The notes beneath the pieces were generated by a model. The model worked only from the letters and a program-made list of their open reading frames with translations, was not told where the DNA came from and did no database searches. The position numbers were made by a program, and so were the translations under genes. A DNA stretch of 39,918 nucleotides, taken from a virus. Shown here one piece after another: positions 1 through 37,580 of this stretch (its first letter is position 1; every line of letters starts with the position of its first letter). Location: UHGV virus genome UHGV-0076060, one strand, 5' to 3'.

Positions 1-219
1 ATATATCAAACAAAATAACCCTGATTAATGAATTATTACGTTTATCATGTTAACTCATCATTATTACATCATCATTGTAAATAATTAAATTAACTTCCAT
101 AACATTAAAATATGTATTCACTGACGCTTTTTTACATAACGAAGAATTGACCATTTTGTCCTGTTGTGCCTTAATGTAAGTACCGTCCACGGCGTGGGAC
201 ATACTTCAAGGAACCTTTT

Positions 220-411
220 GTGAGTCAGGCAACCAGTATGCGAAAACGACACCGATTTAACAGTCGCATGACCCGTATCGTACTGCTCATCAGCTTTATC
301 TTCTTCTTTGGCCGTTTTATCTACTCGTCCGTCGGTGCCTGGCAGCACCATCAGAGCAAAAAAGAAGCTCAGCAATCCACACTCTCCGTCGAATCACCGG
401 TACAACGTTAG
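220..411 (+). CDS. yfgG: small membrane protein (63 aa), YfgG-like host gene
   Basis: ORF with one hydrophobic helix (IVLLISFIFFFGRFIY) and enterobacterial-style codon third positions; name is from recollection of the E. coli yfgG-yfgH-yfgI neighbourhood, not a search. Alternative starts at 238 or 265. Confidence 0.4.
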   Translation: MSQATSMRKRHRFNSRMTRIVLLISFIFFFGRFIYSSVGAWQHHQSKKEAQQSTLSVESPVQR

Positions 412-712
412 CGGTTACCTTCTCCACTCTCACAGAACATAACGGCACCTCGCTGTCGGATGCTTTTGCTCTTTGAGATTATCAAAGCGGCAGATATTCT
501 TTCATCTTAAATTTTACGTCTTTGTTCTGACTGCAGTTCGGCTGCGAAATAAATACATCATTAATACATATGTTGTGATGATGTATTTTTATAAATTATT
601 CCCCACATGAATTTTAATAAATTTAATCTATTCCTTTATACGCAATACATTTACTTTCCTCTTTTGATGATCTTAAATGTCTTATTTTTCGTAATGTGTA
701 TAACAAGGAATA

Positions 713-1231
713 GTGATGAAATTTAAAAAATGTCTTCTGCCTGTGGCAATGTTAGCGTCATTCACTCTGGCAGGATGCCAGTCAAATGCTGATGATCATG
801 CCGCCGATGTTTATCAAACCGATCAACTGAATACCAAACAAGAAACTAAAACCGTTAATATTATTTCCATTCTTCCCGCAAAAGTTGCCGTAGACAACGC
901 CCAAAATAAACGGAACGCACAAGCCTTCGGCGCGCTTATTGGCGCTGTCGCTGGCGGTGTTATCGGCCACAACGTCGGGTCTGGCAGCAATTCCGGAACG
1001 ACGGCAGGTGCAGTTGGCGGCGGAGCTGTAGGCGCGGCAGCGGGTTCTATGGTGAATGATAAAACCTTAGTGGAAGGTGTTTCTTTAACATATAAGGAAG
1101 GCACCAAAGTGTATACCTCCACCCAGGTGGGTAAAGAGTGCCAGTTTACGACAGGTTTAGCCGTTGTTATTACCACGACGTATAACGAAACGCGTATTCA
1201 GCCAAATACCAAATGTCCTGAAAAGAGCTAA
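713..1231 (+). CDS. yfgH: glycine-zipper outer-membrane lipoprotein (172 aa), YfgH-like
   Basis: Signal peptide with lipobox (LAGC), Gly/Ala-rich glycine-zipper segment; host flank; name from recollection. Confidence 0.6.
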   Translation: MMKFKKCLLPVAMLASFTLAGCQSNADDHAADVYQTDQLNTKQETKTVNIISILPAKVAVDNAQNKRNAQAFGALIGAVAGGVIGHNVGSGSNSGTTAGAVGGGAVGAAAGSMVNDKTLVEGVSLTYKEGTKVYTSTQVGKECQFTTGLAVVITTTYNETRIQPNTKCPEKS

Positions 1232-1246
1232 TAATCAGGAGGAGTC

Positions 1247-1786
1247 ATGAAGAAAGTTTTTCTTTGCGCCATCTTAGCCTCCTTAAGCTATCCGGCTATC
1301 GCCTCATCATTGCAGGATCAACTCTCGGCTGTCGCAGAAGCGGAACAGCAAGGTAAAAATGAAGAGCAAAGGCAGCATGACGAATGGGTCGCGGAGCGCA
1401 ACAGGGAAATCCAGCAAGAGAAGCAACGTCGCGCAAACGCCCAGGCCGCGGCTAATAAAAGAGCGGCAACGGCAGCAGCGAATAAGAAAGCTCGTCAGGA
1501 TAAACTGGACGCCGAAGCCACTGCGGACAAAAAACGCGATCAAAGTTATGAAGATGAGCTACGTAGCTTAGAGATTCAGAAACAAAAACTGGCGCTGGCG
1601 AAAGAAGAAGCCCGCGTTAAGCGCGAAAACGAATTTATCGATCAGGAACTGAAGCACAAAGCTGCGCAAACCGATGTGGTGCAATCTGAAGCTGACGCAA
1701 ACAGAAATATGACTGAAGGCGGTCGCGATCTGATGAAAAGCGTGGGTAAAGCAGAAGAGAATAAATCAGATAGCTGGTTTAACTAA
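1247..1786 (+). CDS. yfgI: secreted coiled-coil protein (179 aa), YfgI-like
   Basis: N-terminal signal peptide, charged Ala/Lys/Glu/Gln-rich coiled-coil body; RBS AGGAGG upstream; followed by terminator. Confidence 0.55.
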   Translation: MKKVFLCAILASLSYPAIASSLQDQLSAVAEAEQQGKNEEQRQHDEWVAERNREIQQEKQRRANAQAAANKRAATAAANKKARQDKLDAEATADKKRDQSYEDELRSLEIQKQKLALAKEEARVKRENEFIDQELKHKAAQTDVVQSEADANRNMTEGGRDLMKSVGKAEENKSDSWFN

Positions 1787-1824
1787 ACGATGTTAGTAAC
1801 TTCAAACCTATAATTCTTTAGGAT

Positions 1825-1857
1825 AAAAAACCCTCTGTAGTAACAGAGGGTTTTGTT
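1825..1857. terminator. bidirectional rho-independent terminator between convergent yfgI and guaA 3' end
   Basis: Hairpin CCCTCTG-tagtaa-CAGAGGG flanked by an A-tract upstream and TTTTGTT downstream. Confidence 0.65.
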
Positions 1858-1878
1858 CATTCATAGTGCAGGGTCAAA

Positions 1879-1893
1879 TCATTCCCACTCAAT
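1879..1893 (-). other. guaA: guaA 3'-terminal remnant (IEWE-stop), candidate prophage attL core
   Basis: Minus strand reads ATT GAG TGG GAA TGA, the C-terminal codons of GMP synthase as I recall them; the reading frame is closed by a stop immediately upstream and phage lysis genes begin about 90 bp away. Confidence 0.5.
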
Positions 1894-1980
1894 TATTTAC
1901 GATACACATAAACAATTGACTGATAACAACTTTCTTCCACATGATTTTCACCGTACCGTTTTATATACCGTCACCGGAAA

Positions 1981-2478
1981 TCAGTGCCACGATTTTTGCT
2001 TCTTCAGTGAATCGTATTGCTGTTCGCAGGATTCTCCTGCAATCCGATACTTTTCAGCCTCAGCTGCTGTTGCGTTGTAAACTCGGTTGCTTTCTTCAAG
2101 CATGTCGGCGAGCACACCGATGACCTTGCTGGCTGGCGTGCCAGTGGGGAAAGATCCGGTATAGTGTTCGGCGAGTCGCTTGGTTTTGTCAAGCTCGGCG
2201 CGCAGGCTGTCAGCAGCGGCATTAGCATGCTCAGCATCAACACGCGCCACATCGATACGGGATTGTGCTTCACGTTCAATTTGTGTTTTCTCCTGATCAC
2301 GTTGTGACCTGGCCTTATCATCAGCCTGTTTCTGATCTTCCTGTGCCTGCGCATACCCGGCGTCGTACTGACGACTGCCGTGTGCATTCCAGGCTACAAC
2401 TCCTGATATGACCAGAACAGCAAGCATCGCCATGATAACCAACTGTTTCCAGTATGCTTTTGCGAATGCCCAGATCAT
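1981..2478 (-). CDS. Rz-like i-spanin (165 aa)
   Basis: N-terminal TM helix then charged coiled-coil periplasmic domain; last gene of lysis cassette; start overlaps endolysin stop. Confidence 0.7.
2004..2252 (-). CDS. Rz1-like o-spanin lipoprotein embedded in Rz in the +1 frame
   Basis: Embedded ORF with signal peptide and lipobox (LLTAC) followed by Pro-rich short mature peptide; classic Rz/Rz1 embedded architecture. Confidence 0.6.
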   Translation of the reverse strand: MWRVLMLSMLMPLLTACAPSLTKPSDSPNTIPDLSPLARQPARSSVCSPTCLKKATEFTTQQQLRLKSIGLQENPANSNTIH

Positions 2479-3104
2479 ACCGCCAGCACCTTACTGGCAG
2501 TGATGTATCGCGCGCGCCGGTCATCAATGCCGTTCCGGCCACCATTGATAAGCAGAGTTACACGTGCAATATCTCCGGTATACTTCATGCAGCCTTTGCT
2601 GGAGAAGAACCAGGCCGCGCTACGAGCCGCGTATTCGTCCTGTGCCAGCAGTTCAGGATTCTCCAGCAGGTCAACTTTCAGACCGTTTCCGCAGTCACGA
2701 TAGTTATTCAAACCGGTAATCTGGATAAGCCCGCGCCCACGGTAATTCCAGCCATCGCCGGGAGCATTGTTACCCATGCGTTTGCTGTATACCAGATTTG
2801 CGATCGCGCGCTGGCGCTCAAGTGGCAATGGTGGTTCACCAGCGCGGCGCCCCAGTGCATTAGCCTGTCCCTGGGTGAGGCGTCCAGTCCGGACAAAGCT
2901 TGCCAGTCCGGTAACGCTGTAGTTGAAATTCTCCTGCAACCTAGTGAACCCCCCAGACTCATGCCCAACTTGAGCAATAAACATTGCCTGATCTTCTGCT
3001 TTGCTGATACCAAACTCTTTCATCGCAGAAGTTATATGCGAGAACCAGCGAGCGGCCAGCGCCTCGCTAATACCAGCAGCTCGCTGGAATTGTTTAATCT
3101 CCAT
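2475..3104 (-). CDS. endolysin, glycoside hydrolase family 19-like (chitinase class I-like lysozyme)
   Basis: 209 aa with motifs [12 protein letters not shown] and [12 protein letters not shown] typical of GH19-type phage endolysins; sits between holins and Rz. Confidence 0.8.
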
Positions 3105-3402
3105 GTTTAGACCTCGTTATTTTGAAAATCTGAACGACGTTACCGCGCGTTTTAATAACCGCAGCAAGCATGACAGCGTTGATAATGACCTCAGATAAAT
3201 CCACAGCCATTGGCGTGCGTAACCAGATTGCATAGACGACACGAACTGGAATACTGGCTGCAGCAACAATCAGGAAATAAGCAAGCCATCCCCCCCATCT
3301 TCGGTGTTGTGAACCGTTACGCCGGAAAGTGACAACGCGAATTGCTATGCCAGTACAAATAACTGCATTGGTGATAAGCAAAAAAAACTCATGCGTTACC
3401 AT
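3094..3402 (-). CDS. holin/antiholin-like small membrane protein (102 aa)
   Basis: Three predicted TM helices, immediately upstream of endolysin with overlapping boundaries. Confidence 0.55.
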
Positions 3403-3805
3403 CGTCTTTTCTCCCCGGAATTAACTCGCGTGGATTATCGGAACGGTGATAGAGCCAGATGCCAATTCGTACTGCGACGATTGCTGACACAAATGCGCCA
3501 GCAGAGAAAACAATCCCTTTCTCGAAAGAGTCCTGCGTGATGGTAGGTATCAGGCTGGCTATGCCGATAAGAATTGATGCTGCTGGTTTGTAGAAAAGAA
3601 GTCCGCAGAGAAAACTAAGCATCGACAAGAGTACGCGACGACGAATTGGGTACTCTACCGCAGAGGTAACAAAAATTACCGCGCCAGCCAAAGCTCCCAA
3701 AGCAACCTCAGGAGGCACTCCTGCTATCACCGCCGCCAGAGAACTCATGCTAAGCCACTGATTTAATGTTTCACTGGTTAGTTGAGCTGACATATTTTCC
3801 ACCAT
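3389..3805 (-). CDS. holin-like multi-TM protein (138 aa)
   Basis: Several hydrophobic helices, charged C-terminus, first gene of lysis cassette; start may be the internal Met (MSAQLT). Confidence 0.55.
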   Translation of the reverse strand: MVENMSAQLTSETLNQWLSMSSLAAVIAGVPPEVALGALAGAVIFVTSAVEYPIRRRVLLSMLSFLCGLLFYKPAASILIGIASLIPTITQDSFEKGIVFSAGAFVSAIVAVRIGIWLYHRSDNPRELIPGRKDDGNA

Positions 3806-4014
3806 TTATATGCATAACGACCCCCTAAATAGTAAAGCATCATGCATGATAAACCATTTATGGTTTTTTGTTACCCTGGCATCGTAAATCCCCTGCCTTT
3901 GATGTCGATAATAAGGCTCGCCTTTTACATAACTCTGAAGAGATTGCAGTACAGAAATTATTTAAAATATAGAGGCTTAGTTGAATTCCGCGCCATCAAA
4001 TGGCGCGGTAGCAG

Positions 4015-4299
4015 TCAAATATAGAAATAAACACCAAAACAAACAGTAACAGGAACAACAAAGTCAAACAGGCTTCCAACATCCCATACGCGCGGATCAA
4101 AACCTCCCCACCACGGCATATTCATACGCTTGCCATGCCCGAACATTTCAATCCAGCGATATTCTGCCTGGGTGTGTTCACGCGCAATGAAGAACGTACA
4201 ACCAGCTATCGCTCCGTAAGCCCAGTTTCCGGTAAAAAGGCCAATCAGTACCTGCGCAGCCACAGCACAAAACGCATGAAGGAAAGGTGTTATATCCAT
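4015..4299 (-). CDS. small polytopic membrane protein (94 aa) immediately downstream of tailspike
   Basis: ORF from ATG at 4299 with strong RBS AAGGAG; 2-3 hydrophobic helices; function unknown. Confidence 0.5.
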   Translation of the reverse strand: MDITPFLHAFCAVAAQVLIGLFTGNWAYGAIAGCTFFIAREHTQAEYRWIEMFGHGKRMNMPWWGGFDPRVWDVGSLFDFVVPVTVCFGVYFYI

Positions 4300-4333
4300 T
4301 ATCGCTCCTTTAACATAAGGATAAATAAACACT

Positions 4334-6649
4334 TCATAAAATAGATTTCGTCTTTGTAACAATAATATCTACAAAATCACCTGCAGATATAGCTGATGGT
4401 ACTGTATCTGCAAGAGTAATCTTTTCTGAAGAGATGTTTTGCACATCTAATAATTTATTTTCAACCCCATCCGTATATACCAATTTGACATCACTGAATG
4501 GAGGGTAATAAGTGACTGTTCCTTGGTATACATATATTTCACTGCCTGAAATTGATTTCACTACATACCTGCCCCTTACAAGATTAATTTTGAGTTCAGA
4601 TAAATCGGTTTTATAACAGGTAATTCCTGAACCAATGTTAGCCATACTAATATCAGTATCACTATAATAAGTAATTGCTTTTCCTTGTTTTAAGGTGAAG
4701 TTATCTTTGCTTTTCCTTGGCAAGGATGTGCTATTTTTGTAATATCTACCAGTTAAGCATAGCCATGAAAATGCAGTATTCGCTACATTACCACCAGAAT
4801 ACACAGCTAAACGAATTGCACTAACTGGAACCCCTTCATTATTAATCCTGATCTTAATGGAAGAAATGTTAGCAACAGTAGCATATCTATGGTTAGATGA
4901 ATCCCATTGCATAGAAGAAGTTATTGCTTCTGTTTGTGAAGTTATGACATTCCCATCTCCATCTAATGCATACAGGTAAATGCGAAACGATGCCGTATCT
5001 GCTGAGAATGTAAACATATCACCATTTCTTACTGGTACATCTCCAGATTCCCATAACAACCCAAAATTCCGCATAAAAGCAAACTTAGAAGAAACTAGGT
5101 GACGGATATTATATAAACCATCTACATCTGTTTGATATGCTAATACACCAACTTCTCCATTGTTGGCACTGGATATAAATGGGGTGTTAGCATTTAAAGA
5201 AAACAATGTTACTTCATCGGATATATTTTCCTGAACATGAAATACTGCATTCCCCTTGCCATTATCAGTTACCTCTACATAAGTGTAAGGTGATGGATTG
5301 TATGGTTCATTTGTATAGTAAGGAGAACTTAACCATGAAGCCTCAATTGAGTTATTCCACGTATATTCACCAAAGTTAATTATCAACTGTTGGTTAGTTG
5401 GGGATGATGGATATCGTTCAAAACGAAACCCGTAGAAGTAATTGTTATCACCTCTTTGAATATCAATTTTACCTGCCCCCTCCATAGTTCCACCATAAAA
5501 CTTATTGTGGTTATGATGATATGGATTATCAGCGAAAATGATATTATTCGTACGATTCAGATAAAAATAGTTTTCATTTATCCATCCGTTCTCAACTCCA
5601 AGAAAATGAATTGTATCGACCTTTTTCAGGTTAAAGGTTGAGTATGCTATTGAATAATCCGTCGATGCCACCGAAGCATTATAATTTGCATATAACTGTA
5701 AGTAGTCGCAACGCTCAATGTTTATATGCTGCCCTTTTGCCCCGATAATACGAATATCCGGTGTCGTTTCAGATGAAATACCAGAATTTCTGATAATCGT
5801 TCCGAAGTTTTGTCTTGGGTTGTTAGGGTTTGATGCATTCCCGCCAAGCAATACCCCTATTCCTGAGTGGGATATGGTAAAAACAGCATTGGTCATTTCG
5901 AGGCTGACATTACGAAGATTTAATGTCTCCGTAATAATAAAATTACCTTCCGCTCGTAATGTTCTGGATGATTCTCGTGCATATTCTGCAGCCAGGATCA
6001 ATGCAGATGTATCATCTGTTATACCATCGCCTTTTGCCCCAAAATCGCGAACACTAACGGTGTCTCTCATCTTATCCTGGAACGTTCGGTATACTGCTCC
6101 AGAACCATACTGAATAAACCAACCAAAACCACCAACAACCCCGGCGATTGCAGCATCGACATAATTACGCATTGAGCGATTATTTACAGCGTCCTGCTCA
6201 AGTGATGGATCTGCAAGGTTAGAAATTTTGTTTTGCTTTGCATCGTAATATTTTGCAAGCAAAGATGGTTTCATCAATGCACGTCTGAACCACCCAAAAC
6301 ATTGCTGGATCAGCATCGTCAGGTAGTCAAAAGCATCTTCATGCACTTCGGGGAAAAATTTTCCCTGATTGCGAAGATCTGTCTCCTGCACTACATCAAG
6401 CACACGATCTATCGTAATTCGCCAGCCAGCAGCAAGCGGAGACGGCAGAACCACTGAACCGCCACTATAAGTGCCCGCCCCAGTTACCGTATAACCGGTA
6501 TCCAGAACCAATTCTGTTACGTTCCCGTTCAGGTCAGACACCTGAACAACCAGGTCTGATTTTCTGAAAATTCGAAAAGTATACGGAAACGATGTCGTAA
6601 CGCCGTTACCTGTGTATTCGTTGTGGTCAACTTCGGTTGAGACCGTCAT
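4334..6649 (-). CDS. tailspike/tail fiber with T7-type N-terminal adaptor domain and beta-helix depolymerase-like body (771 aa)
   Basis: N-terminus (YTGNGVTTSFPYTF...DLVVQV) matches the phage T7 tail-fiber N-terminal pattern; DFGAKGDGITDDT resembles pectate-lyase/beta-helix motifs; C-terminal coding part (4334-5700) is markedly AT-rich. Confidence 0.8.
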   Translation of the reverse strand: MTVSTEVDHNEYTGNGVTTSFPYTFRIFRKSDLVVQVSDLNGNVTELVLDTGYTVTGAGTYSGGSVVLPSPLAAGWRITIDRVLDVVQETDLRNQGKFFPEVHEDAFDYLTMLIQQCFGWFRRALMKPSLLAKYYDAKQNKISNLADPSLEQDAVNNRSMRNYVDAAIAGVVGGFGWFIQYGSGAVYRTFQDKMRDTVSVRDFGAKGDGITDDTSALILAAEYARESSRTLRAEGNFIITETLNLRNVSLEMTNAVFTISHSGIGVLLGGNASNPNNPRQNFGTIIRNSGISSETTPDIRIIGAKGQHINIERCDYLQLYANYNASVASTDYSIAYSTFNLKKVDTIHFLGVENGWINENYFYLNRTNNIIFADNPYHHNHNKFYGGTMEGAGKIDIQRGDNNYFYGFRFERYPSSPTNQQLIINFGEYTWNNSIEASWLSSPYYTNEPYNPSPYTYVEVTDNGKGNAVFHVQENISDEVTLFSLNANTPFISSANNGEVGVLAYQTDVDGLYNIRHLVSSKFAFMRNFGLLWESGDVPVRNGDMFTFSADTASFRIYLYALDGDGNVITSQTEAITSSMQWDSSNHRYATVANISSIKIRINNEGVPVSAIRLAVYSGGNVANTAFSWLCLTGRYYKNSTSLPRKSKDNFTLKQGKAITYYSDTDISMANIGSGITCYKTDLSELKINLVRGRYVVKSISGSEIYVYQGTVTYYPPFSDVKLVYTDGVENKLLDVQNISSEKITLADTVPSAISAGDFVDIIVTKTKSIL

Positions 6650-6753
6650 GTTAAATCTCCAGATAGTCGCAGCACCCGTTGCGCCGCATATCTGGTTATT
6701 CTATTACCCAAAAAACCATATATGGATAGAAAGGCTGTGAATATGAATAGATA

Positions 6754-6768
6754 TTACCTTTCAGGTAA
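6754..6768. promoter_or_regulatory. ATTACC-N5-GGTAA operator-like palindrome (copy 1)
   Basis: TTACCtttcaGGTAA; 16 bp identical to the copy at 26545; about 105 bp upstream of the tailspike start. Confidence 0.5.
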
Positions 6769-6805
6769 TTTGCAAAACGTGCTGGATAGCAAACAAATTA
6801 TTTGC

Positions 6806-6825
6806 TACTGTATAAATATACAGTT
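6806..6825 (+). promoter_or_regulatory. LexA (SOS) box overlapping promoter of downstream small gene
   Basis: TACTGTATAAATATACAGTT fits the CTGT-N8-ACAG consensus with AT-rich spacer; overlaps a TATAAAT -10-like element 20-40 bp upstream of the ORF. Confidence 0.7.
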
Positions 6826-6845
6826 ATTGCATGGAGAAGATTAAG

Positions 6846-7103
6846 ATGCAGCAGTATCACTATCCACTGGAAGACGGATTTACCGAAAGGATTCACACGC
6901 CGGGAGGCGTCAGGTCACTGGTGGAGGGATCGCACTTGATGAAATTACTCCGGGATCTCGATAAGGATGGATTTAATGTCGATGGCCCACTTGCTGAACT
7001 GACTGCACTGATTAACTACGTCACCAGCTCACAGATGTCTATGCGGGATCTGCAAACACATCTCGACTATTGTGCCGAACAATTACGAAAACAAACCACA
7101 TAA
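6846..7103 (+). CDS. small SOS-controlled protein (85 aa), putative antirepressor
   Basis: RBS GGAGAAG before ATG at 6846; about 44% identity over ~45 aa to the C-terminal domain of the Bro-N protein at 8252..8947; preceded by LexA box. Confidence 0.6.
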   Translation: MQQYHYPLEDGFTERIHTPGGVRSLVEGSHLMKLLRDLDKDGFNVDGPLAELTALINYVTSSQMSMRDLQTHLDYCAEQLRKQTT

Positions 7104-7126
7104 AAAAAAAGGCCGCAAGAGCGGCC
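7102..7126. terminator. bidirectional terminator between convergent genes
   Basis: Hairpin GGCCGC-aaga-GCGGCC with A9 tract on one side and T-rich run on the other. Confidence 0.65.
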
Positions 7127-7854
7127 TATCGTTTCGCTTTGTGCTCGTCCCAGCACGTTTTGCACCATGCCATTAAGCCGTCCGCATTTTGATTATTAGA
7201 GTAAAAGCTGGTGCGTTTTCTGCGGACATTACAAATTGGGCACCACTTCATATGGCGTGTATTCTTTGGGCCATCGAGACACCTTGCACACCACTTAGTC
7301 AATCCATCTGGATTTTTTGACGATTTCCTGAATTTTTCATATGGAAGGTTTATTCTGCATCGCAAACACTGCTTACTACCACTTGAAACTCTGTTAGCTG
7401 ATTCTTCTTGTGATGGCGATACAGAAGGTATTCTTGCTGGCTCAGATACTACCTGAGGAGCTTTTTTAGGTAACTGAGACGATATGTCATCACCTGGGAA
7501 TCTGTCATGATATGCCGGACGCGTTGACACTCCAGGTGGAAGCTCTGCTGTAAATGGCTTTGGCTGAATCAGCGCCCTCTCTTTTGCTGACTCCTGTTGT
7601 TTATAATATGTCTGGATTACCGATATATCATAAGCAGGATGTACTGAAATATCCGGCGCATTACCTCCAGTTTTTTGAAACTGAGTGGAGGTGTGGTCTA
7701 TCACCTGTGTACGATTAATCGTTATTTCTCCATCTTCGGTCTTTATCGTTTTGCGATGATTAACGACTGTGCGATCAGAGACCTTAGTCCTGTTCTGGTT
7801 GATAACGTAAATAATCACCGTAACAACACCAACAACTATCCAGAAAACTTCCAT
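7126..7854 (-). CDS. membrane-anchored protein with tandem C-terminal CxxC...CxxC zinc-ribbon repeats (242 aa)
   Basis: N-terminal TM helix (VFWIVVGVVTVIIYVI), Pro/Ser-rich linker, two repeats of C-x2-C-x(17-19)-DGL-x3-WC-x2-C. Confidence 0.6.
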   Translation of the reverse strand: MEVFWIVVGVVTVIIYVINQNRTKVSDRTVVNHRKTIKTEDGEITINRTQVIDHTSTQFQKTGGNAPDISVHPAYDISVIQTYYKQQESAKERALIQPKPFTAELPPGVSTRPAYHDRFPGDDISSQLPKKAPQVVSEPARIPSVSPSQEESANRVSSGSKQCLRCRINLPYEKFRKSSKNPDGLTKWCARCLDGPKNTRHMKWCPICNVRRKRTSFYSNNQNADGLMAWCKTCWDEHKAKR

Positions 7855-7874
7855 TGCTTTTCCTCACAATAACA

Positions 7875-7889
7875 TTACCTTAAAGGTAA
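7875..7889. promoter_or_regulatory. ATTACC-N5-GGTAAT operator-like palindrome (copy 2)
   Basis: TTACCttaaaGGTAA about 20 bp upstream of the 7854 start codon. Confidence 0.5.
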
Positions 7890-7967
7890 TATCTTGCTTT
7901 CAGGTGATCAAGCGTTAAACGCAATCAACCAAATACGGTTGATTTTAATATTTCTCCGCGTTTATCA

Positions 7968-7982
7968 TTACCTTTTCGGTAA
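7968..7982. promoter_or_regulatory. ATTACC-N5-GGTAA operator-like palindrome (copy 3)
   Basis: TTACCttttcGGTAA, adjacent to a TTTACA -35-like hexamer. Confidence 0.45.
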
Positions 7983-8019
7983 ATTTACATCGCACTCATC
8001 TTGTGCCATAGTAATCGGG

Positions 8020-8096
8020 CACTGGCAAAATCCAGTGCCGGGATTGGCGTCCCGGATTACTAAAAGGCGCATTCACCGCGCAAGCGGTTTTTTTAT
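8020..8096 (+). ncRNA. candidate small RNA (about 75 nt) ending in an intrinsic terminator
   Basis: No plausible ORF; possible promoter (TTTACA...TAGTAAT) upstream; two internal hairpins (GGCACTGG/CCAGTGCC and CCGGGA/TCCCGG) and terminal hairpin ACCGC-gcaa-GCGGT plus T7 tract at 8075-8096. Confidence 0.3.
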
Positions 8097-8251
8097 GCGT
8101 ATAGCACGGCCACATTCGTATTATGGTGGGCTGTGTGGGGGCACCGAAAGGTGCGCCGGGTCCTTTTAGCCGGTTACGCCAACCCTGCACAGTTCACCAC
8201 CAACCGATTGGCGTCGGTAGTGGTGATTGACCAGACTAAAAGGTAACCACT

Positions 8252-8947
8252 ATGACAGCTACAAAAAGCACGTCCATTTTTTCTTTCGAATCCCAAGCCG
8301 ATATACGAGTAATCGTCATTAATGGTGAGCCATGGTTTATCGCTTCAGATGTTTGTCGGGCTATAGGCATAGCAAACCATCGAGATGCTGTTCGAAAACT
8401 TGATGATGATGAGAAGGGCGTCGCTTCAACCGACACCCCTGGCGGTGAGCAAGAATCGATCATCATCTCCGAGTCAGGCCTCTACACACTGATCCTCCGC
8501 TGCCGCGACGCAGTGACACCAGGCACTATCCCCTACCGCTTTCGTAAATGGGTTACAGGTGAGGTTCTTCCTCAGATCCGCCGCACCGGAAGTTACATTA
8601 AAAACTCGCTCCCGCAGGAAGAACGCATAAAGATGGTTGCCGACCAGGTTGCAAACGCCACAGCATCAGCAGTGATGCAGGCGATGAAGATAGAGAACAA
8701 AACCTACAGTGCCCCACTGAAGCCCGGCTACCGTAGCCTGATTCATTCGCCGTCTGGTGTTCTCGGCCTGACGGAGAACTCACTGCTGATGAATCTGCTG
8801 AACCAGTTACAGGAAGACGGGCACGATGTATCGGGAGCGGCGGCGGAGCTGACCACCATGTTCTGCTACATCGTCGGTGTGAGCAAATGCCTGCGTGATA
8901 TCCAGACCCACGCGGAGTACATCAACGACAAGGCAGGGTTCTTCTGA
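8252..8947 (+). CDS. Bro-N domain protein, antirepressor-like (231 aa)
   Basis: N-terminal Bro-N/KilA-N-like sequence (FESQADIRVIVINGEPWFIASDVCRAIG...FRKWVTGEVLPQIRRTG); C-terminal domain homologous to the 85-aa protein at 6846..7103. Confidence 0.75.
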   Translation: MTATKSTSIFSFESQADIRVIVINGEPWFIASDVCRAIGIANHRDAVRKLDDDEKGVASTDTPGGEQESIIISESGLYTLILRCRDAVTPGTIPYRFRKWVTGEVLPQIRRTGSYIKNSLPQEERIKMVADQVANATASAVMQAMKIENKTYSAPLKPGYRSLIHSPSGVLGLTENSLLMNLLNQLQEDGHDVSGAAAELTTMFCYIVGVSKCLRDIQTHAEYINDKAGFF

Positions 8948-9116
8948 CGGGCGGCGGCACAGGGATGTGCCTTTAAATAATTCTGTACAGATTGCAGGTG
9001 AATAGCTTACTATTACCTCACGGGTGATCCATAGCGATTAGGCACCGATACAGGAGGAGCCCACATGAGAAAATTTGACGAGTACGAAGGCGTTTAACAT
9101 TCGGATAGTTTAATGA

Positions 9117-9140
9117 CGGGGCCATTAGGCCCCGTTTTCA
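9117..9140 (+). terminator. intrinsic terminator / attenuator-like hairpin upstream of 9157 gene
   Basis: CGGGGCC-atta-GGCCCCG followed by TTTTCA; preceded by a 10-codon ORF with AGGAGG RBS (9065..9097). Confidence 0.5.
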
Positions 9141-9156
9141 TGTCTGGAGACAGTTT

Positions 9157-9696
9157 GTGTTAAGTGAAGAAATGCAATTTGCCATGGCTGTGGCTCAAAT
9201 CGTAAGTGCAGTCGCGGTTTCGCTTGGCTTGTTCATAGCTATCGCTACTATTATTTATAATGTAAATACAGCGAGAAAAGTACACACTTCAGTATTCCTT
9301 GGTGAAAGCAGGTTTGATGTAGATTATAAGAAAGGCCTATCTACTATGCGCCGCATTCACGAATCGAACAAATCATTCCGCTCTTATATGTATCCAAGCA
9401 ATGGACAGGCTGATCTTACGGATGAAGAAAAGACAGAGAAGAGAGAAATAATTTACTGTCTAGGTTTCTACGAACGCATGGCTGTGAGCGTGAAGCGGAA
9501 AACTTATGATGAGACAATGATTAAGGAAGTATTTTACAGCTCCGTTGTAAATAACTATCAGATTGCGCTACCTCTTATACAAGCCATTAGAGAAAAAGAA
9601 AACATAAACACATATTTTAAAGAATATGAATGGTTGGCCACACGATGGAAGGATTGTCCATTGAAGGATAAATCCCCGTGGTACAAGTTTTGGTAA
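9157..9696 (+). CDS. N-terminally membrane-anchored protein of unknown function (179 aa), AT-rich moron
   Basis: GTG start with GGAGA RBS (alternative ATG at 9172); one N-terminal TM helix; low GC; flanked by terminators. Confidence 0.6.
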   Translation: MLSEEMQFAMAVAQIVSAVAVSLGLFIAIATIIYNVNTARKVHTSVFLGESRFDVDYKKGLSTMRRIHESNKSFRSYMYPSNGQADLTDEEKTEKREIIYCLGFYERMAVSVKRKTYDETMIKEVFYSSVVNNYQIALPLIQAIREKENINTYFKEYEWLATRWKDCPLKDKSPWYKFW

Positions 9697-9722
9697 GCCC
9701 GCGCTGCGGGCTTTTTTGTGGA
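9697..9722 (+). terminator. intrinsic terminator
   Basis: GCCCGC-gct-GCGGGC followed by TTTTTTGT immediately after the stop codon. Confidence 0.7.
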
Positions 9723-9789
9723 CGAAACAAAAGTCAGTGCTACACTCATTGACGCCACATTGAGGTGGCTTATAGATGGAAATTTCACA

Positions 9790-9951
9790 ATGAAAAAAGC
9801 ATTTGCTGCACTGTTCGTTTTGTTGTCTCTGGTAGCTTCAACTCAGGCCTTTGCCGGTCGTTGTCAGCACGACAGCGATACTGCCGCTGACGGCTCCCGC
9901 TGCGGTGGGCGTTCTGCGGATTCCCGCCCGGGTGGCGGTGGCATTCGTTAA
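9790..9951 (+). CDS. small secreted peptide (53 aa precursor, about 31 aa mature, 2 Cys, Gly-rich)
   Basis: ATG at 9790 gives MKKAFAALFVLLSLVASTQAFA signal peptide then GRCQHDSDTAADGSRCGGRSADSRPGGGGIR; own promoter-like TTGACG upstream; weak RBS. Confidence 0.45.
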   Translation: MKKAFAALFVLLSLVASTQAFAGRCQHDSDTAADGSRCGGRSADSRPGGGGIR

Positions 9952-9957
9952 AAACAA

Positions 9958-9973
9958 GGCCGCGAAAGCGGCC
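9958..9973. terminator. GC hairpin with GAAA loop; terminator for minus-strand gene 9983..10339
   Basis: GGCCGC-gaaa-GCGGCC; on the minus strand followed by TTGTTTTTA. Confidence 0.6.
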
Positions 9974-9974
9974 T

Positions 9975-9986
9975 GTGACATGTCAC
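9975..9986. repeat. 12-bp perfect palindrome GTGACATGTCAC (copy 1 of 3)
   Basis: Exact 12-mer also at 27581..27592 and 29846..29857; overlaps stop codon of the minus-strand gene. Confidence 0.7.
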
Positions 9987-10339
9987 GTCCCTTTTCTGAA
10001 TGATAGCCATTCGAAAAATGATGACATTCCACCGCAGACAATAGCAAAGATGATCCCACCAAAGAAGAGAAGGCCAGCCTGCCACCACTCCCACCGCCAT
10101 ACATCCACAGCGCCAACCATACCAACAATCGCTCCAACAAATGGAATATAGCTCACGATGAAAGCAATGGGGGCTGCAATTATCCAGTGCAATCCCCACC
10201 ATGATTCAAGCCCAGCCATAATTGCTGCCAACTGAAAAAGACCAACGACGATATAAACAATGAATCCTATAGCTTGCATGTAGTCACCTAATTTACCCAG
10301 TAAAAATAAGAGGCCTCCCCTCAATAAGGCTTGCAACAA
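9983..10339 (-). CDS. small polytopic membrane protein (98-118 aa)
   Basis: Hydrophobic throughout (3-4 TM); TTG start at 10339 with AGGGAG RBS or ATG at 10279; Trp-rich (WRWEWWQ). Confidence 0.55.
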   Translation of the reverse strand: MLQALLRGGLLFLLGKLGDYMQAIGFIVYIVVGLFQLAAIMAGLESWWGLHWIIAAPIAFIVSYIPFVGAIVGMVGAVDVWRWEWWQAGLLFFGGIIFAIVCGGMSSFFEWLSFRKGT

Positions 10340-10475
10340 GAACTACTCCCTGCACAACAAAGATGAACCAGCAAATAGCTTGAGTCTGAGGGTTAAGAAA
10401 ATATTTGTAGCGGTCAATAAATAACAATCCACCAGAAATTATCACACTCAAAATAATTAAAAACACAACACTTCC

Positions 10476-12950
10476 TTATTGCGGAGTGACATCCTGTGGT
10501 CGCCACCAGTATGTCTGGTTAAACTCTTTCTTCGAACGTTGCTCCATTTTACGCAAATAACCTGGTGAAAAATACTCCTGCATCTGGTTAAAGATCATGT
10601 GATCGAGAGCCGCCTTTAAGTACCAGAGATTCGCACCTGGCATCAGACCTTTCCCCAGCTTAACCAGATCACCACCAGTCTGCTCATTCTTCCCTTCCAC
10701 AGCATTTAACGGTATGCCCTGAGCAATCTTCACTACGTCATCAACCAGACCAGCTACCGGGCCAAGCATCGACGCCAGCGCGCCGCTTCCGTACCTAGTG
10801 TGATCTGACAATAAAAAGTCACCGTAAAGGCCAAGACCACCACCTTTCAGTAGAGCACCAAGCCAAAATTTAGCAGCATCTTCTCCTGTCATCTCGCGAG
10901 GATTACGACCAGACGCAAGGTCGTTAAGTTGCTGCGACAAAGCGCCAAGAATGGTCGTACTGGCAATAAACGTCGCAATATATGCCGCACGCCCACCAGC
11001 CGACGGCATACCCATAGCGCGTGACCAGTGACGCATAACCACCGAGATAGGGAACGATTTAAACAGGAAAACACTTCTCGTTAATTCACCTTTCCATGTT
11101 CCACGCTGAATACCAGAACCGGTTATCAGTTGCTCACGTGCACCCGGTGTAATAACAGCCATATCAACTTCTTCAGTTACGGCACCGAGCAGTTTACGCA
11201 TTGCCTCAAATTTCACGCGTTCAGGCTCACCAAGATGTTTAACTGCTGAATCAGGGATACGCATAATGCTTTCCGGTGTCAGCATCGTATTATTACCGTT
11301 CCCCCAGTCCTCCTGTTGCGCCAGCTTCCATACGCTCCAGTCTGTGTCAGTAATCCCTTTGCTTTTCAGGATACGAAAATCAGAGTCATCGAGGCTACGA
11401 AGGTCTGGTGTCCGTGACACTACTTCTCCCAGGCTTCCCATCATGGTTACGCCATAGGCGCGCTTGTGCGCATCTGACCATGCTGTAAGCCCACTGGCAC
11501 GCATTACCGCCGTTGCCGCCCAACGAGACACAGACGGCCCCATATTATCCATCGCCCAGCGGTTAACACTGCCAAGTAGAGATTCCATCGCCAGACCAGC
11601 GCGGCGCGCCCGCGCAAGCTCAGTACGGTTCGTTGGGTCCATAGCTTCAAGCTGGTTGCGGAATAACTGGTTCATTGGAAGGTTGGTAACCTTCGCAGAC
11701 AGATACATGGTTCCAAGATCAGAGAACGATGACAGCAACGCGGATCCGAGTCTGCTGGCAACCAGCCAGTTGCGGATATTGTCAGACCATCGCGCGATGT
11801 GCGGATTCGCTACAGGCTGTGTCTTTCCGGAAATAAAGTTGTACAGATTCTCTGTGTTGTTCGCCAGCCGCTCGACTTTACCGGTTTTACTCGGGTTAGC
11901 TGTTGCCGTTTCTGCCTTCACCTGATCAAGAAGAGAGCGGAAAACATGATCGGGGTTTGGGCCATATGTTTCCACCAGTGCAATATCTTTACTGATACCT
12001 TCCAGGTGACCGACCATGATTTCCCATAGAGAGCGATCGCCATAAAGTTGCTGATATTGCAGATAGGAATCTGCATCTTTGAAATGTATCTGTCGTGATG
12101 CATTACCACGGTTAGCACGTGCTCCGGAAATTCGCATTCCGGTGTCAGTAAGCTTATTCAGCCCACCAGTAGCGATCGTGTTATAAGCCTCTCCAAGAAA
12201 TGCAGACAACTCGGCATCGTTCATCAGTTGTCCATCGGCTCGGGTATAATATTTGCGATCCAGCTTACCTATAACATCGCTAACCCATTTATCTTTTGAT
12301 ACCGCCCCAACCTTTTCCATAGAATGATGTTGAGGGATCCCCCAGTTTTCGAGATAGCCAATGTCCCCACCAGCATCATTAAACCGGCGGCGAAGTAGAT
12401 CTGTCACTTCTCTCCACGCCTTAGCACCTTTTCTTGCTTTAGCATTGCCAGTATTTTGCCCTCGCATTTCATATACCAGGTCACGCACGCCCGCTTCATC
12501 TTCAAACAGGCCAAAAAAGCGAGGATCAACTGCTTCAAATGCCTCCTGCAATTGACTCAATGCATAATCACGGGTGGCTTTTGTTCTGGATTCAACAGAG
12601 AGGAAATTCGATTTACCGTCTGCATTAAAAGCAATAGTACGGTTAAGAGCGCCAAGTTTCCCATCAGCCCCTTGATAGCTATTGATAAATTTATCCAATC
12701 TCTGACGTGCGGCTATAGTGAGGGCCACACGACGTTTCTTTAATGCCGCTTCTCGCTGTAATTCTTCAGATGCCAATTGTGCTGCACGATATAGCCGCTC
12801 TGATTCGGAAAGTTGTCTCCACGACATCGGGTCATCACGAGCAATGGAGCGCATATTTCGATAAATGCGGTCTTCAATGTTCTGTATTTCTCGCGCCGTT
12901 AACGTGCGCTGCGCCGCCTGCTGGACCGCTTGTATACATTCCTGTCTCAT
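10476..12950 (-). CDS. internal virion / DNA-ejection protein (824 aa)
   Basis: Large ORF in the run of internal-core genes between tail-tube genes and tailspike; position equivalent to T7 gp15/gp16. Confidence 0.6.
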   Translation of the reverse strand: MRQECIQAVQQAAQRTLTAREIQNIEDRIYRNMRSIARDDPMSWRQLSESERLYRAAQLASEELQREAALKKRRVALTIAARQRLDKFINSYQGADGKLGALNRTIAFNADGKSNFLSVESRTKATRDYALSQLQEAFEAVDPRFFGLFEDEAGVRDLVYEMRGQNTGNAKARKGAKAWREVTDLLRRRFNDAGGDIGYLENWGIPQHHSMEKVGAVSKDKWVSDVIGKLDRKYYTRADGQLMNDAELSAFLGEAYNTIATGGLNKLTDTGMRISGARANRGNASRQIHFKDADSYLQYQQLYGDRSLWEIMVGHLEGISKDIALVETYGPNPDHVFRSLLDQVKAETATANPSKTGKVERLANNTENLYNFISGKTQPVANPHIARWSDNIRNWLVASRLGSALLSSFSDLGTMYLSAKVTNLPMNQLFRNQLEAMDPTNRTELARARRAGLAMESLLGSVNRWAMDNMGPSVSRWAATAVMRASGLTAWSDAHKRAYGVTMMGSLGEVVSRTPDLRSLDDSDFRILKSKGITDTDWSVWKLAQQEDWGNGNNTMLTPESIMRIPDSAVKHLGEPERVKFEAMRKLLGAVTEEVDMAVITPGAREQLITGSGIQRGTWKGELTRSVFLFKSFPISVVMRHWSRAMGMPSAGGRAAYIATFIASTTILGALSQQLNDLASGRNPREMTGEDAAKFWLGALLKGGGLGLYGDFLLSDHTRYGSGALASMLGPVAGLVDDVVKIAQGIPLNAVEGKNEQTGGDLVKLGKGLMPGANLWYLKAALDHMIFNQMQEYFSPGYLRKMEQRSKKEFNQTYWWRPQDVTPQ

Positions 12951-18280: not shown

Positions 18281-20748
18281 AATCCCCCAACAGTAAGGCG
18301 AGGAATAACGGCAAGAACAGACAGCGGCAACGGGTCAAGCTGACGGATTCTTACACGTCCGTTTTTGCCCCAGTTACTGTCCAGTTTCACTTCTACTTTT
18401 CCGGTAGCGTCATCAACAGGATCATCGTAGAACTCGAATTCACGCTGTGGATATTCGTACCATTTACCGCCTGGCGTAGTCGCCCAGATGCCGCGGCTGG
18501 CATTCACAACCAGAGTAACGGACGGGATCACCTGTTTTTTGTCCAGCAGCGTTTCCTGTCCGTTAATGTTGATATCCAGTGTTTCGAATTCAGCAGTTAT
18601 TGGCAGGCCGATGTGCACTACAGCCCCCGGTGATTCCAGCGTGACGGCACCTCCGGAAACCACTTTCTGTGGTTCCACGTTCGCATCAGAGAGAATGTTT
18701 ACGGTCTGGCCTTCAAGATGAGACAGGCCTCCAAATGTCCGGCGCGCCATCTGCCAGTTCATGGTGGCCGCATTCCTGAGGGATGGCGGGACGTTCCTGT
18801 TGGCACGAACCACTACAGCGGTATTGCTGGTTACAGAAATAATGTCGCAACGTAATTCTTTTGACACTTCATCGCCAGTATCAGGATCAGTTCCGGCATA
18901 AGGGAACTGTAGTTGCGCGCCGACATCACTACTGGTGAAGTACGCACCACCAGAAACACTGATTGTATATTCCGCGCGATAATCCCATTCGCCAGAACCA
19001 CCAGTGATGGTCATCGTTCTGTCAGACGTATTTCTTCCATCATAGCTAAGGCCAGAATCAACAAAGAAAGCATCTTCATCGCTGGTAAATAAACGGCTGG
19101 ACAGTCTCTCGATGTATCTCACTGTTTGCCCGTTAACGGTTCTGTTAACGACGAAATACACCGCATCTTCATTGCCTTCGCTGATACTGCATGTGCTTTC
19201 ATATTTTCCGGTACTGGATTGTGGTGCCCATGCAAAAACCTGCTGATCACGCAAGTAGGTCATCACCAGTAATTTACCATCATCACGAATGCAGAAGGCG
19301 CTGGAGTAAGGGACAATCGAGAAGCACCAGTCAACAATGCTGTGCTTCTGAAAAAGATGATTGGCAAGGATAGTAAGGTCGTTCCCCTGATATCCGTCAA
19401 CATCGAATGAGTAGGCCAGATCACGTACAACACTGCCTTTCTCCTGGACGAACAGAGCAATATTCGCCACGGCAATTGGTGGGACATTGCTCGAGCCATT
19501 TGATCCCTGAGAGCTGAATGCAAATGATGATGGGGTTAACACTTTGTTCTGGTCGCCGGTGATGACGTACTCACCTCCAGAAGTCAGTGCCACCAGCGAA
19601 CCGACATCAATCAGGTGGCGGATCTCATTAACCTGACGCCCGGCATAGGTGTAGATAATTCTGTCGTCATCCTGCGTAGGATTGCTTTTGCCAAAATCCT
19701 TATAATCCCCGGTACGGCTGGCCCAGATAGTCTGAGGGAACGCAGTCGATGCGGCGAAGTAAAGACGTTGTTGATAATAAACAACAGTGCCAGGATAACC
19801 ATTAACACTGTTCCAGGCATATTTAGCCCATTTATAGCTGGCATTATCCTCGCCAACTACCTGCGAAGGGATATAGGAAATCACCTCGGCAGTTGCAGTA
19901 GTTCCATTTGCAGCAGTGATACGGGCAATGCCAAAACCACTGTGCAGATATTCCCACTCAATGCCAGTATCATCATCACCGGATCCGCCCCAACCATCCC
20001 ATGATGTGCCTTCTGTATGCGAAGGGCGCAAAGTACCTGTTTTGCCTGCTGTAACGGCGCGATAGTAGTTACTGTCTGCACGGCGAATATCGCCAATCGA
20101 CGTACTCTTACTGGTTTCCCATACCGGCACTGAATCCACTGCAGGCTGTTCCAGATAGAACAATTTGCCTACCTGCTCCGCGCCAAAAATAGAGGCGCTT
20201 GCCGTTAACGTAATTGTCCCGGTGCTGGCGCTGGCATAAACCGTCACTGACTCGTCAATATTGATATCTTCAAATGGCCCGTTCTTCGTTACCACATCAA
20301 CCAGTTGCCAGTTGTCATGCGCATAGCGGCGCAACTCTTTCGGCGGGTATGCCGGGTGAACCAGCGTAAGCACGTCGGCGCTTTGCGTGAATTTAATTCG
20401 GAACAGATCGGCTTCAGTATATGGCGTGGCAATTTCATAAATAACATTGCTGCTGTTCAGCACCAACGCACCATCTTTGATAACGCGCATGTACTGGTGT
20501 CCGAACTCCAGAGCATAGGTCTGAACCGTCGAGAACTGGAACGGGATCAGGCGGCATTTCCGATTTGGGTATTTGGCGGCACCGACAAAACGCGTACCAG
20601 GTCGATTCTCAACGCCGCCATACTGCCGCACGATAAAGTTATCGCACTTGCGCAATGCCACCTGGTACTTCGCCATGTCGATACGCCCGTATAATGACGG
20701 GCCAATTTCACCACCAGCGAAGCTGGGTTGTATCCAACTGATAGCCAT
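18277..20748 (-). CDS. tail tube/nozzle protein, T7 gp12-like (823 aa)
   Basis: Size and position directly after the gp11-like gene; beta-rich composition; overlapping coupling with neighbours. Confidence 0.55.
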   Translation of the reverse strand: MAISWIQPSFAGGEIGPSLYGRIDMAKYQVALRKCDNFIVRQYGGVENRPGTRFVGAAKYPNRKCRLIPFQFSTVQTYALEFGHQYMRVIKDGALVLNSSNVIYEIATPYTEADLFRIKFTQSADVLTLVHPAYPPKELRRYAHDNWQLVDVVTKNGPFEDINIDESVTVYASASTGTITLTASASIFGAEQVGKLFYLEQPAVDSVPVWETSKSTSIGDIRRADSNYYRAVTAGKTGTLRPSHTEGTSWDGWGGSGDDDTGIEWEYLHSGFGIARITAANGTTATAEVISYIPSQVVGEDNASYKWAKYAWNSVNGYPGTVVYYQQRLYFAASTAFPQTIWASRTGDYKDFGKSNPTQDDDRIIYTYAGRQVNEIRHLIDVGSLVALTSGGEYVITGDQNKVLTPSSFAFSSQGSNGSSNVPPIAVANIALFVQEKGSVVRDLAYSFDVDGYQGNDLTILANHLFQKHSIVDWCFSIVPYSSAFCIRDDGKLLVMTYLRDQQVFAWAPQSSTGKYESTCSISEGNEDAVYFVVNRTVNGQTVRYIERLSSRLFTSDEDAFFVDSGLSYDGRNTSDRTMTITGGSGEWDYRAEYTISVSGGAYFTSSDVGAQLQFPYAGTDPDTGDEVSKELRCDIISVTSNTAVVVRANRNVPPSLRNAATMNWQMARRTFGGLSHLEGQTVNILSDANVEPQKVVSGGAVTLESPGAVVHIGLPITAEFETLDININGQETLLDKKQVIPSVTLVVNASRGIWATTPGGKWYEYPQREFEFYDDPVDDATGKVEVKLDSNWGKNGRVRIRQLDPLPLSVLAVIPRLTVGGF

Positions 20749-26881: not shown

Positions 26882-26958
26882 GTGGCATTAGCTCAGTTGG
26901 ACAGAGCAACCGCCTTCTAAGCGGTTGGTCGCAGGTTCGAATCCTGCATGCCACGCCA
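26882..26958 (+). tRNA. tRNA-Arg (anticodon UCU, reads AGA)
   Basis: Manual cloverleaf: 7-bp acceptor GTGGCAT/ATGCCAC, D-stem GCTC/GAGC, anticodon stem ACCGC/GCGGT with loop CTTCTAA, T-arm GCAGG-TTCGAAT-CCTGC, discriminator G, encoded CCA. Confidence 0.85.
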
Positions 26959-36462: not shown

Positions 36463-36762
36463 ATGAACGTTAATCAGCAGAAAAATCTTCAAAAAATCAT
36501 GCTGGCATTCGACAAGGACTACCGCCTGTCAGAACAGCTATATGACCGACAAGTTGAACTGATCGAGAGCATCCGGCTTCATCAACTGGCCTCAACTTTT
36601 GACGCTGTAACAGGCAAAGGAGTTCGCCAGGAAGTGCTGGAGGCAGCTAAAGACAGCCCTGAGTTCGAAGAACTTATGGATGCCTACCGGCGCGAGGCAA
36701 TAGCAATTATCGCCCGCTGGGATCTGGCGGATCGGATTGATGGGCAGAGGGAAGCGGCATGA
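36463..36762 (+). CDS. hypothetical early protein (99 aa)
   Basis: ATG with GGGAGG RBS; overlaps next gene start. Confidence 0.5.
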   Translation: MNVNQQKNLQKIMLAFDKDYRLSEQLYDRQVELIESIRLHQLASTFDAVTGKGVRQEVLEAAKDSPEFEELMDAYRREAIAIIARWDLADRIDGQREAA

Positions 36763-37580
36763 AACCGGGAATTTATTTCGACATCAGCAACGAAGACTAC
36801 CACGCCGGTGACGGCGTGAGTAAGTCGCAACTGGACATGGTTGCCAAGAATCCGGCGCTTCTTAAATGGGTTCAGGCAGCACCAGAAGACGAAGAGAAAA
36901 AGTCTGCACTGGATATGGGAACCGCATTGCACTGTCTGCTTCTGGAACCTGGAGAATTCGACAAACGCTTCATCGTTTCACCGAAATTCGATCGTCGGAC
37001 AAAACAAGGTAAAGCTGACGAAGAAGCATTTCTTCGTGATGTGGCGGATATGGGTATTACGGTACTTGATGTCGAGCAGTGGCGAAAACTGGAGCTGATG
37101 CGTGATAGCACAATGGCTCACCCGGCTGCACGCTGGATGTTGGAAGCACCTGGTTACTGCGAAGCGTCAATGTACTGGAACGATGAAGAGACGGGTGAGT
37201 TGTGCCGAATTCGTCCAGACAAATGGCTGAACGAGCACAACGTGATCGTCGACGTGAAAAAGGTTGCAGATATGGACCGTTTTGCACGCCACATCGAGGA
37301 ATTCCGCTACCACGTGCAGGACGCAATGTACCGCGAAGGCGCAATGAGGGTTACTGGTCAGCCGCATGGTTTTTTCTTTCTTGCCGTGAGCGAAAGCATT
37401 GATTGTGGTCGGTATCCGGTACGCGTGTTCGAGCTGGATGCGCAGGATGTCGATGCCGGGCACGCTCTGTTCCGCCGGGATCTGAATACCTATCACGAAT
37501 GCCGCATCAATGATGAATGGGGCGGTGTGGAAATCATTAAACGCCCTGAGTGGGCACGCAAACAGGATATGTACATATGA
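36759..37580 (+). CDS. PD-(D/E)XK family exonuclease (RecE/YqaJ-like partner of RecT) (273 aa)
   Basis: Motifs IRPDKW and IVDVKK fit a PD-(D/E)XK core; translationally coupled (ATGA overlap) to the RecT-like gene. Confidence 0.6.
   Translation: MKPGIYFDISNEDYHAGDGVSKSQLDMVAKNPALLKWVQAAPEDEEKKSALDMGTALHCLLLEPGEFDKRFIVSPKFDRRTKQGKADEEAFLRDVADMGITVLDVEQWRKLELMRDSTMAHPAARWMLEAPGYCEASMYWNDEETGELCRIRPDKWLNEHNVIVDVKKVADMDRFARHIEEFRYHVQDAMYREGAMRVTGQPHGFFFLAVSESIDCGRYPVRVFELDAQDVDAGHALFRRDLNTYHECRINDEWGGVEIIKRPEWARKQDMYI

Follow-up and report, generated by a model that had tools for sequence, protein, structure and literature searches.

Positions 1877-1893 of the window, the 39,918-nt stretch of UHGV-0076060 that was analysed, almost certainly form the crossover core of a B-O-P′ junction, at which the attP of a circular Uetakevirus genome recombined with the attB in guaA. 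This attB would comprise the last four sense codons of guaA, its stop codon and the two bases that follow. The left boundary of the prophage is fixed to the base by the core, while the right boundary is predicted at window-equivalent positions 41504-41520, giving a unit of 39,627 bp, and guaA is undisrupted in the lysogen. The junction is already known, as its site, core sequence and integrase family have been published, and it is common in E. coli. Approximately one tenth of the complete E. coli genomes carry the same junction, and no new biology is added by the present case.

The general logic is that of lambda and P4. In these systems a conserved gene holds a short core in its 3′ end, which the phage replaces so that the gene survives; recombination is carried out by a tyrosine integrase with arm-type sites and IHF. 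Unlike in lambda and P4, the target here consists of the last codons of a protein gene and not of a tRNA gene or an intergenic site.

The junction at the 3′ end of guaA

The features on both sides of the junction are listed below.

220-411, plus strand: yfgG, host gene
713-1231, plus strand: yfgH, host gene, glycine-zipper lipoprotein
1247-1786, plus strand: yfgI, final host gene before the junction, stop codon at 1784-1786 (Pfam DUF5384, E = 4e-62)
1825-1857, both strands: host bidirectional hairpin terminator, between the yfgI stop and the guaA relic
1877-1893: common core (O), AATCATTCCCACTCAAT; reverse complement ATTGAGTGGGAATGATT
1879-1893, minus strand: orphan guaA 3′ end (IEWE-stop), a relic and not a gene, recognized by translation
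1883-1905 and 1903-1925: two overlapping IHF-like sites, predicted by homology to the IHF protein_bind features of the epsilon15 GenBank record
1894-1980: P′ arm of the attachment site, non-coding, from the core to the Rz stop codon
1897-1899, minus strand: phage-derived in-frame TAA, which ends the relic frame two codons 5′ of IEWE
1965-1974, plus strand: predicted integrase arm-type site ATACCGTCAC, carried over from the epsilon15 GenBank annotation

Window positions 1-1876 are E. coli chromosome, and the gene next to the junction is annotated as yfgI by RefSeq in identical loci. A megablast of positions 1600-2200 against 5,426 complete E. coli genomes gave a match in 5,417 of them. In approximately 5,200 genomes the identity stops exactly at 1893 (query base 294), where the matching genome enters guaA; in at least 184 genomes the match runs on into the Rz gene, as in the window. 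The same boundary is seen in the unoccupied yfgI-guaA locus of strain SK1144, which is 100% identical to window positions 1600-1893 (294 nt, E = 3e-151) and then continues with guaA and not with the window sequence. On the other side, the matches of positions 1860-12000 to phage records (phiV10, phiv142-3, HEMP4, ZX5, Tyrion and others) begin at query base 17-19, which is around window position 1877. The initial annotation had placed attL inside the 3′ end of guaA, and this is where host identity ends (1893) and phage identity starts (1877).

Four sequences were compared side by side, i.e., the window junction, the unoccupied locus of SK1144 (L002), the attP of phiV10 (L003) and the far junction of the lysogen AR_0086 (L004), together with the attP of epsilon15 (L006) and an attR locus (L007). 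These sequences have exactly 17 bases in common, AATCATTCCCACTCAAT, consisting of 15 nt of guaA and 2 nt beyond its stop codon, and the adjoining bases differ between host and phage versions. The relationship between the four is B-O-P′ for the window, B-O-B′ for SK1144, P-O-P′ for phiV10 and P-O-B′ for AR_0086. Because the core is the only stretch common to attL, attB, attP and attR, the crossover is placed within these 17 bp. A search of the whole window returned one copy of the core. The only other core-like match, at 19946-19962, has three mismatches, lies inside a structural gene and is considered a chance match.

The same core has been described in related phages. In ZX5, 'attgagtgggaatgatt' is the core of both attachment sites; attP lies at a distance of 190 bp from the int 5′ end and attB at the guaA 3′ end, and integration was verified by PCR and Sanger sequencing (PMC9782041). 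The same sequence is given there as the attP of phiV10 and epsilon15 (PMC9782041). Read in the minus-strand sense, window positions 1877-1893 are letter-for-letter identical to this published core. TL-2011b, a related phage, is reported to be inserted in guaA as well (PMC3293862), and the target of the epsilon15 integrase cluster has been reported to be the guaA 3′ flank (PMC8138268). An integration site of the epsilon15/phiV10 type had been named in the initial annotation, and it is corroborated by this core and by the 97-98% identity of the prophage to Uetakevirus phages (over 85-91% of positions 12000-36900).

What remains of guaA at this junction is minimal. The minus strand at 1879-1893 reads ATT GAG TGG GAA TGA, so that translation yields the I-E-W-E-stop that had been annotated there; the complete GuaA encoded on the contig beyond the right end of the window has ...PPATIEWE* as its C-terminus. 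The in-frame stop that was claimed to stand directly upstream does exist, although it is two codons away from IEWE instead of one, with a single phage-derived Ile codon in between ('...S*IIEWE*' in the minus-strand translation). The phage lysis genes said to begin beyond the junction do so with an Rz-like spanin at 1981.

The bidirectional terminator that was proposed to be shared with yfgI beside the relic is present, as illustrated by its folding and by a U-tract 3′ of the stem on either strand. Its stem pairs 1831-1838 with 1843-1850 around a loop at 1839-1842, flanked by an A-run (1825-1830) and a T-run (1851-1857). The hairpin folds with -19.3 kcal/mol on the plus strand and -17.8 kcal/mol on the minus strand (z of about -4.3), none of 200 shuffles folds as well, and it is unchanged in the unoccupied locus of SK1144. 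A consensus terminator scan of positions 1700-2100 called no terminator, this hairpin included, which we think is a limitation of the scan rules, as the flanking A/T runs were allowed into the stem. An Rfam scan of the whole window returned nothing in or near 1860-1980. The sigma-70-like match at 1916-1945 does not exceed chance level, and no role is assigned to it.

The P′ arm aligns with the right arms of the phiV10 and epsilon15 attP sites. In phiV10 the alignment runs from end to end with ATACCGTCAC kept, and the block at 1951-1988 is almost invariant between E. coli and Salmonella phages. In the epsilon15 record, ATACCGTCAC is annotated four times around attP as an 'integrase' protein_bind feature. 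Exact copies occur once in the whole 39.9-kb window, five times around attP and int of phiV10 and three to four times at the attR of lysogens. The predicted arm-type Int sites are conserved on both arms, with binding predicted from these motifs.

The far junction, the integrase and the intact guaA

The right end of the prophage lies outside the window and was located on a contig that was found by exact-sequence look-ups of the methyltransferase and tailspike proteins of the window, both of which led to ENA contig ERZ1742032 NODE_14 (201,426 bp). Two contig stretches were compared with the window, 59031-71679 (12,649 nt) for its left end and 92236-98948 (6,713 nt) for its right end, and neither has a mismatch. 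One offset holds for both end stretches (window x = contig 59030 + x), by which the window would span 59031-98948. The window breaks off within the opening codons of a DUF1382 gene, right behind that of an MT-A70 methyltransferase. On the contig, MT-A70 and DUF1382 are followed by the integrase gene on the opposite strand, the core, guaA, guaB and xseA, with DUF1382, int and attR all located within approximately 1.6 kb beyond the right end of the window.

The second core copy on this contig is found 39,627 bp to the right of the first, at window-equivalent positions 41504-41520, and is abutted by a full-length guaA encoding 525 amino acids. An intact guaA beyond the right end and a duplicated core at the other end of the prophage had both been anticipated in the initial annotation. 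Besides on the contig, the intact gene is found in the same far-junction layout in the lysogens AR_0086 and 323_BP0014 (RefSeq), and the duplicated core is also present in AR_0086. The GuaA accession WP_000138282.1 is common to both lysogens and to the non-lysogen SK1144, which indicates that the enzyme is left unchanged by integration. As guaA is an important gene of purine biosynthesis, its fate at the far junction matters; it is intact there since the phage brings along a copy of the 17 core bases. The int-attR-guaA junction occurs in 568 of the 5,426 complete E. coli genomes (approximately 10%).

The integrase on the contig is a P4-like tyrosine integrase of 416 amino acids with Arm-DNA-bind_3, Phage_int_M and Phage_integrase domains, and is 99% identical to phiV10 Int. 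Its gene begins 192 bp past the guaA stop codon and is encoded outside the window. The word left for the window junction is valid in the orientation of the window only. In lambda, attL denotes the junction next to int, and here int adjoins the far junction instead.

The prophage, its integration and alternative explanations

The prophage genes that are relevant here are the following.

1894-39918: prophage body (Uetakevirus), continuing past the right end of the window
1981-2478, minus strand: Rz-like i-spanin, DUF2514, first prophage gene (Pfam E = 2.5e-23; PHROG 'Rz-like spanin' E = 1e-52)
about 2252 to 2004, minus strand: embedded Rz1-like lipoprotein frame within Rz, ending at 2004, its start placed by the lipobox LLTAC
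2475-3104, minus strand: GH19 endolysin (Pfam)
3094-3402 and 3389-3805, minus strand: two holins (Pfam)
4334-6649, minus strand: tailspike, 771 amino acids
35570-36154: CI-like repressor
36759-38518: PDDEXK exonuclease and RecT
38568-38816, plus strand: AlpA-family protein (Pfam Phage_AlpA; PHROG 'excisionase and transcriptional regulator' E = 2e-16)

The right part of the window also encodes a PerC-like protein and the MT-A70 methylase. By nucleotide identity and gene order, the prophage is a member of Uetakevirus of the phiV10/epsilon15 type. Positions 12000-36900 are 97-98% identical over 85-91% of their length to ZX5, HEMP4, PAS61 and phiv142-3, and phiV10 covers 70% of the same stretch. 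The gene order at both ends is that of phiV10, in which an embedded rz1 is annotated too, and the unit of 39,627 bp compares with 39.1-39.9 kb for the free Uetakevirus genomes of phiV10, ZX5 and HEMP4.

With phiV10 the prophage shares an identical 17-bp core, the order int, terminator, core and Rz, and the nearly identical integrase of the contig. It differs from phiV10 in the tailspike and the adjoining accessory region, in the other cargo that the window carries at 6.6-10.4 kb and in the 3′ end of Rz. ZX5 has the same core and is 97.8% identical over 89% of positions 12000-36900; unlike the prophage, it was isolated as a free phage, and its tail fibre and accessory genes differ, with 37% of positions 1860-12000 covered. 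Epsilon15 has the same core and the same attP architecture, with arm sites for Int, sites for IHF and a terminator that separates int from the core. However, identity in the attP region is approximately 82%, the host is Salmonella and the epsilon15 hairpin has one mismatch in its stem. The guaA-3′-targeting integrases of the 'epsilon15 cluster', for example those of CMGI-3-type islands, use the same target, the conserved guaA end, but the elements concerned are mostly not Uetakevirus phages and have unrelated arm sequences and terminators.

Several observations were made in the parts of the prophage that vary. A 115-aa membrane-like ORF at 4015-4362 (minus strand), between the tailspike and the holins, has no Pfam match and belongs to PHROG 1443. 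It occupies the position at which phiV10 has the O-acetyltransferase gene oac, and may encode another function in serotype conversion or exclusion. Positions 6650-10475 form a variable accessory region that is absent from phiV10. A 242-aa ORF at 7126-7854 (minus strand; PHROG 6762) has a C-terminal stretch resembling endonuclease VII and Lar-like proteins, and the region also encodes a DUF4760 protein (9157-9696, plus strand). Rfam matches well above the gathering scores are found for an isrK Hfq-binding RNA (8019-8094) and a C4 antisense RNA (8119-8204), both on the plus strand, and a Bro-N anti-repressor ORF (8252-8947, plus strand) lies directly downstream of them. Together, 8019-8947 is a c4-ant immunity cassette of the P1/P7 style within a Uetakevirus prophage. 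A tRNA-Arg gene (anticodon TCT) is located at 26882-26958 on the plus strand between minus-strand structural and terminase genes; a tRNA-Arg is also listed for O157 typing phages 9 and 10, which are related.

From these elements a scheme for integration can be proposed. The P4-like tyrosine integrase, encoded beside the far junction, would catalyse conservative site-specific recombination between attP and attB, in which Int would bridge arm and core sites, IHF would probably bend the DNA and strands would be exchanged within the 17 bp. The phage copy of the last guaA codons would then rebuild an intact guaA at window-equivalent positions 41504-41520, and the 15-nt orphan IEWE-stop would be left at the window junction, closed by the phage TAA. 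The AlpA-family protein is likely an excisionase or a regulator of the integration module, and during excision it would direct or activate the reverse reaction between the two junctions. From homology and from the lambda and P4 systems we infer the enzymology, the roles of IHF and the arm-type sites, where exactly cleavage takes place within the 17 bp, and the ability of the prophage to excise.

That the last of these could have been lost is one alternative explanation. The junction would then be genuine but a fossil, with attL as the scar of a defective, non-excisable prophage. Prophages at the guaA site are mosaic, int lies outside the window, and the right half is matched in full by none of the complete E. 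coli genomes, the best one reaching 92% coverage at 97% identity. We nevertheless regard a fossil as unlikely, given that the 39,627 bp between the cores correspond to a full phage length in which all modules have open frames, and that both cores are perfect. The identical contig also carries arm-type sites and encodes the 416-aa integrase that matches phiV10 Int at 99% identity. Moreover, the near relative ZX5 was spontaneously induced from the guaA site (PMC9782041).

Two further explanations concern the origin of the junction, and both are extremely improbable. Taken alone, 15 nt would be weak evidence, and the IEWE-stop could have arisen by chance or remained from a duplicated or rearranged guaA, outside site-specific integration. 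However, the native yfgI-guaA intergenic region is matched at 100% identity by the 294 nt on the left side, free-phage attP sites have their break points at exactly the same bases, and a reciprocal junction exists. The insert could alternatively be a guaA-targeting genomic island or ICE of the CMGI-3 or GIsul2 type instead of a phage. Integrases of the same clade are indeed found directly past guaA in 30 of 120 listed species, and non-phage elements at the guaA site are described in the literature (PMC8138268; PMC9376610). Against an island stand the 38 kb to the right of the junction, which hold a complete podovirus set (lysis, tailspike, structural, terminase, replication, repressor and RecT genes), and their 97-98% identity to isolated Uetakevirus phages. 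Integration of a Uetakevirus at guaA is consequently the reading that is retained.

Terminators and the guaA end in other species

In the free phage, Rz, the core, a hairpin terminator and int follow each other on one strand. The phage hairpin, AACCCTCTGT-TTTT-ACAGAGGGTT, differs from the E. coli guaA/yfgI terminator, AACCCTCTGT-TACT-ACAGAGGGTT, in the loop only. The positions of these near-identical hairpins are given below.

L003 (phiV10 attP) 2933-2956: phage hairpin
L007 (attR locus) approximately 8345-8370: phage hairpin
window 1829-1852: host hairpin

In the lysogen, guaA is followed by the phage hairpin (AACCCTCTGTTTTTACAGAGGGTT) and then int, and Rz is followed by the host hairpin (AACCCTCTGTTACTACAGAGGGTT). 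With this gene order, integration swaps two near-identical terminators. The core-hairpin spacer of the host (24 nt) is unrelated to that of the phage (45 nt). Among the 120 matches listed in other species, none has a CCCTCTG...CAGAGGG hairpin with either loop downstream of guaA, which makes the terminator similarity specific to E. coli and these phages. The hairpin as a generic guaA terminator was rejected, as other Enterobacterales have hairpins of the AAGCCCGC...GCGGGCTT type instead.

The similarity of the hairpins may result from capture of the host terminator by the phage or from selection that keeps both transcription units terminated, and the host copy of the CCCTCTGT/ACAGAGGG hairpin may conversely be a relic of an old integration. 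A more elaborate scenario, in which mimicry or terminator capture was selected and some residual transcription from guaBA passes the phage hairpin and reaches the co-oriented int gene 192 bp further on, coupling int expression to guanine-nucleotide status, seems a long shot. Any regulatory role of the terminator similarity is speculation beyond the observed sequence similarity and gene geometry. If true, the terminator swap would keep both guaA and the phage late operon properly terminated.

The core sequence is not confined to E. coli. A scan of one genome per species for the exact 17-mer ATTGAGTGGGAATGATT (loci L022-L141) found it in at least 120 species, covering Enterobacterales, Pseudomonas, alpha- and betaproteobacteria, Clostridia, Streptococcus, Gordonia, cyanobacteria and archaea. 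At least 107 of the 120 matches listed lie at a genuine GuaA C-terminus (...KPPxTIEWE*), and at least 11 are orphan 'IEWE*' copies like the one in the window, which are junctions of other integrated elements. In 30 of the 120 listed species, an integrase is encoded approximately 240-390 bp past the core, with 42-67% identity to the phage Int (mostly 44-54%). Because diverse guaA genes share the 17-mer and roughly one in four of the sampled species has an integrase of this clade behind it, the guaA end is a favoured landing site, like the 3′ ends of tRNA genes.

One group of matches stands apart. In Citrobacter (L039), Tatumella punctata (L041), an Enterobacteriaceae isolate (L065) and Rosenbergiella (L087), a stretch of approximately 90 nt past the core is near-identical, tcgcgtctggcaacagcctg...aagcccgcg...gcgggctttttt. 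At least two of these four loci have an integrase or integrase fragment adjoining it, and the stretch suggests a second family of guaA-targeting elements with a replacement terminator of its own.
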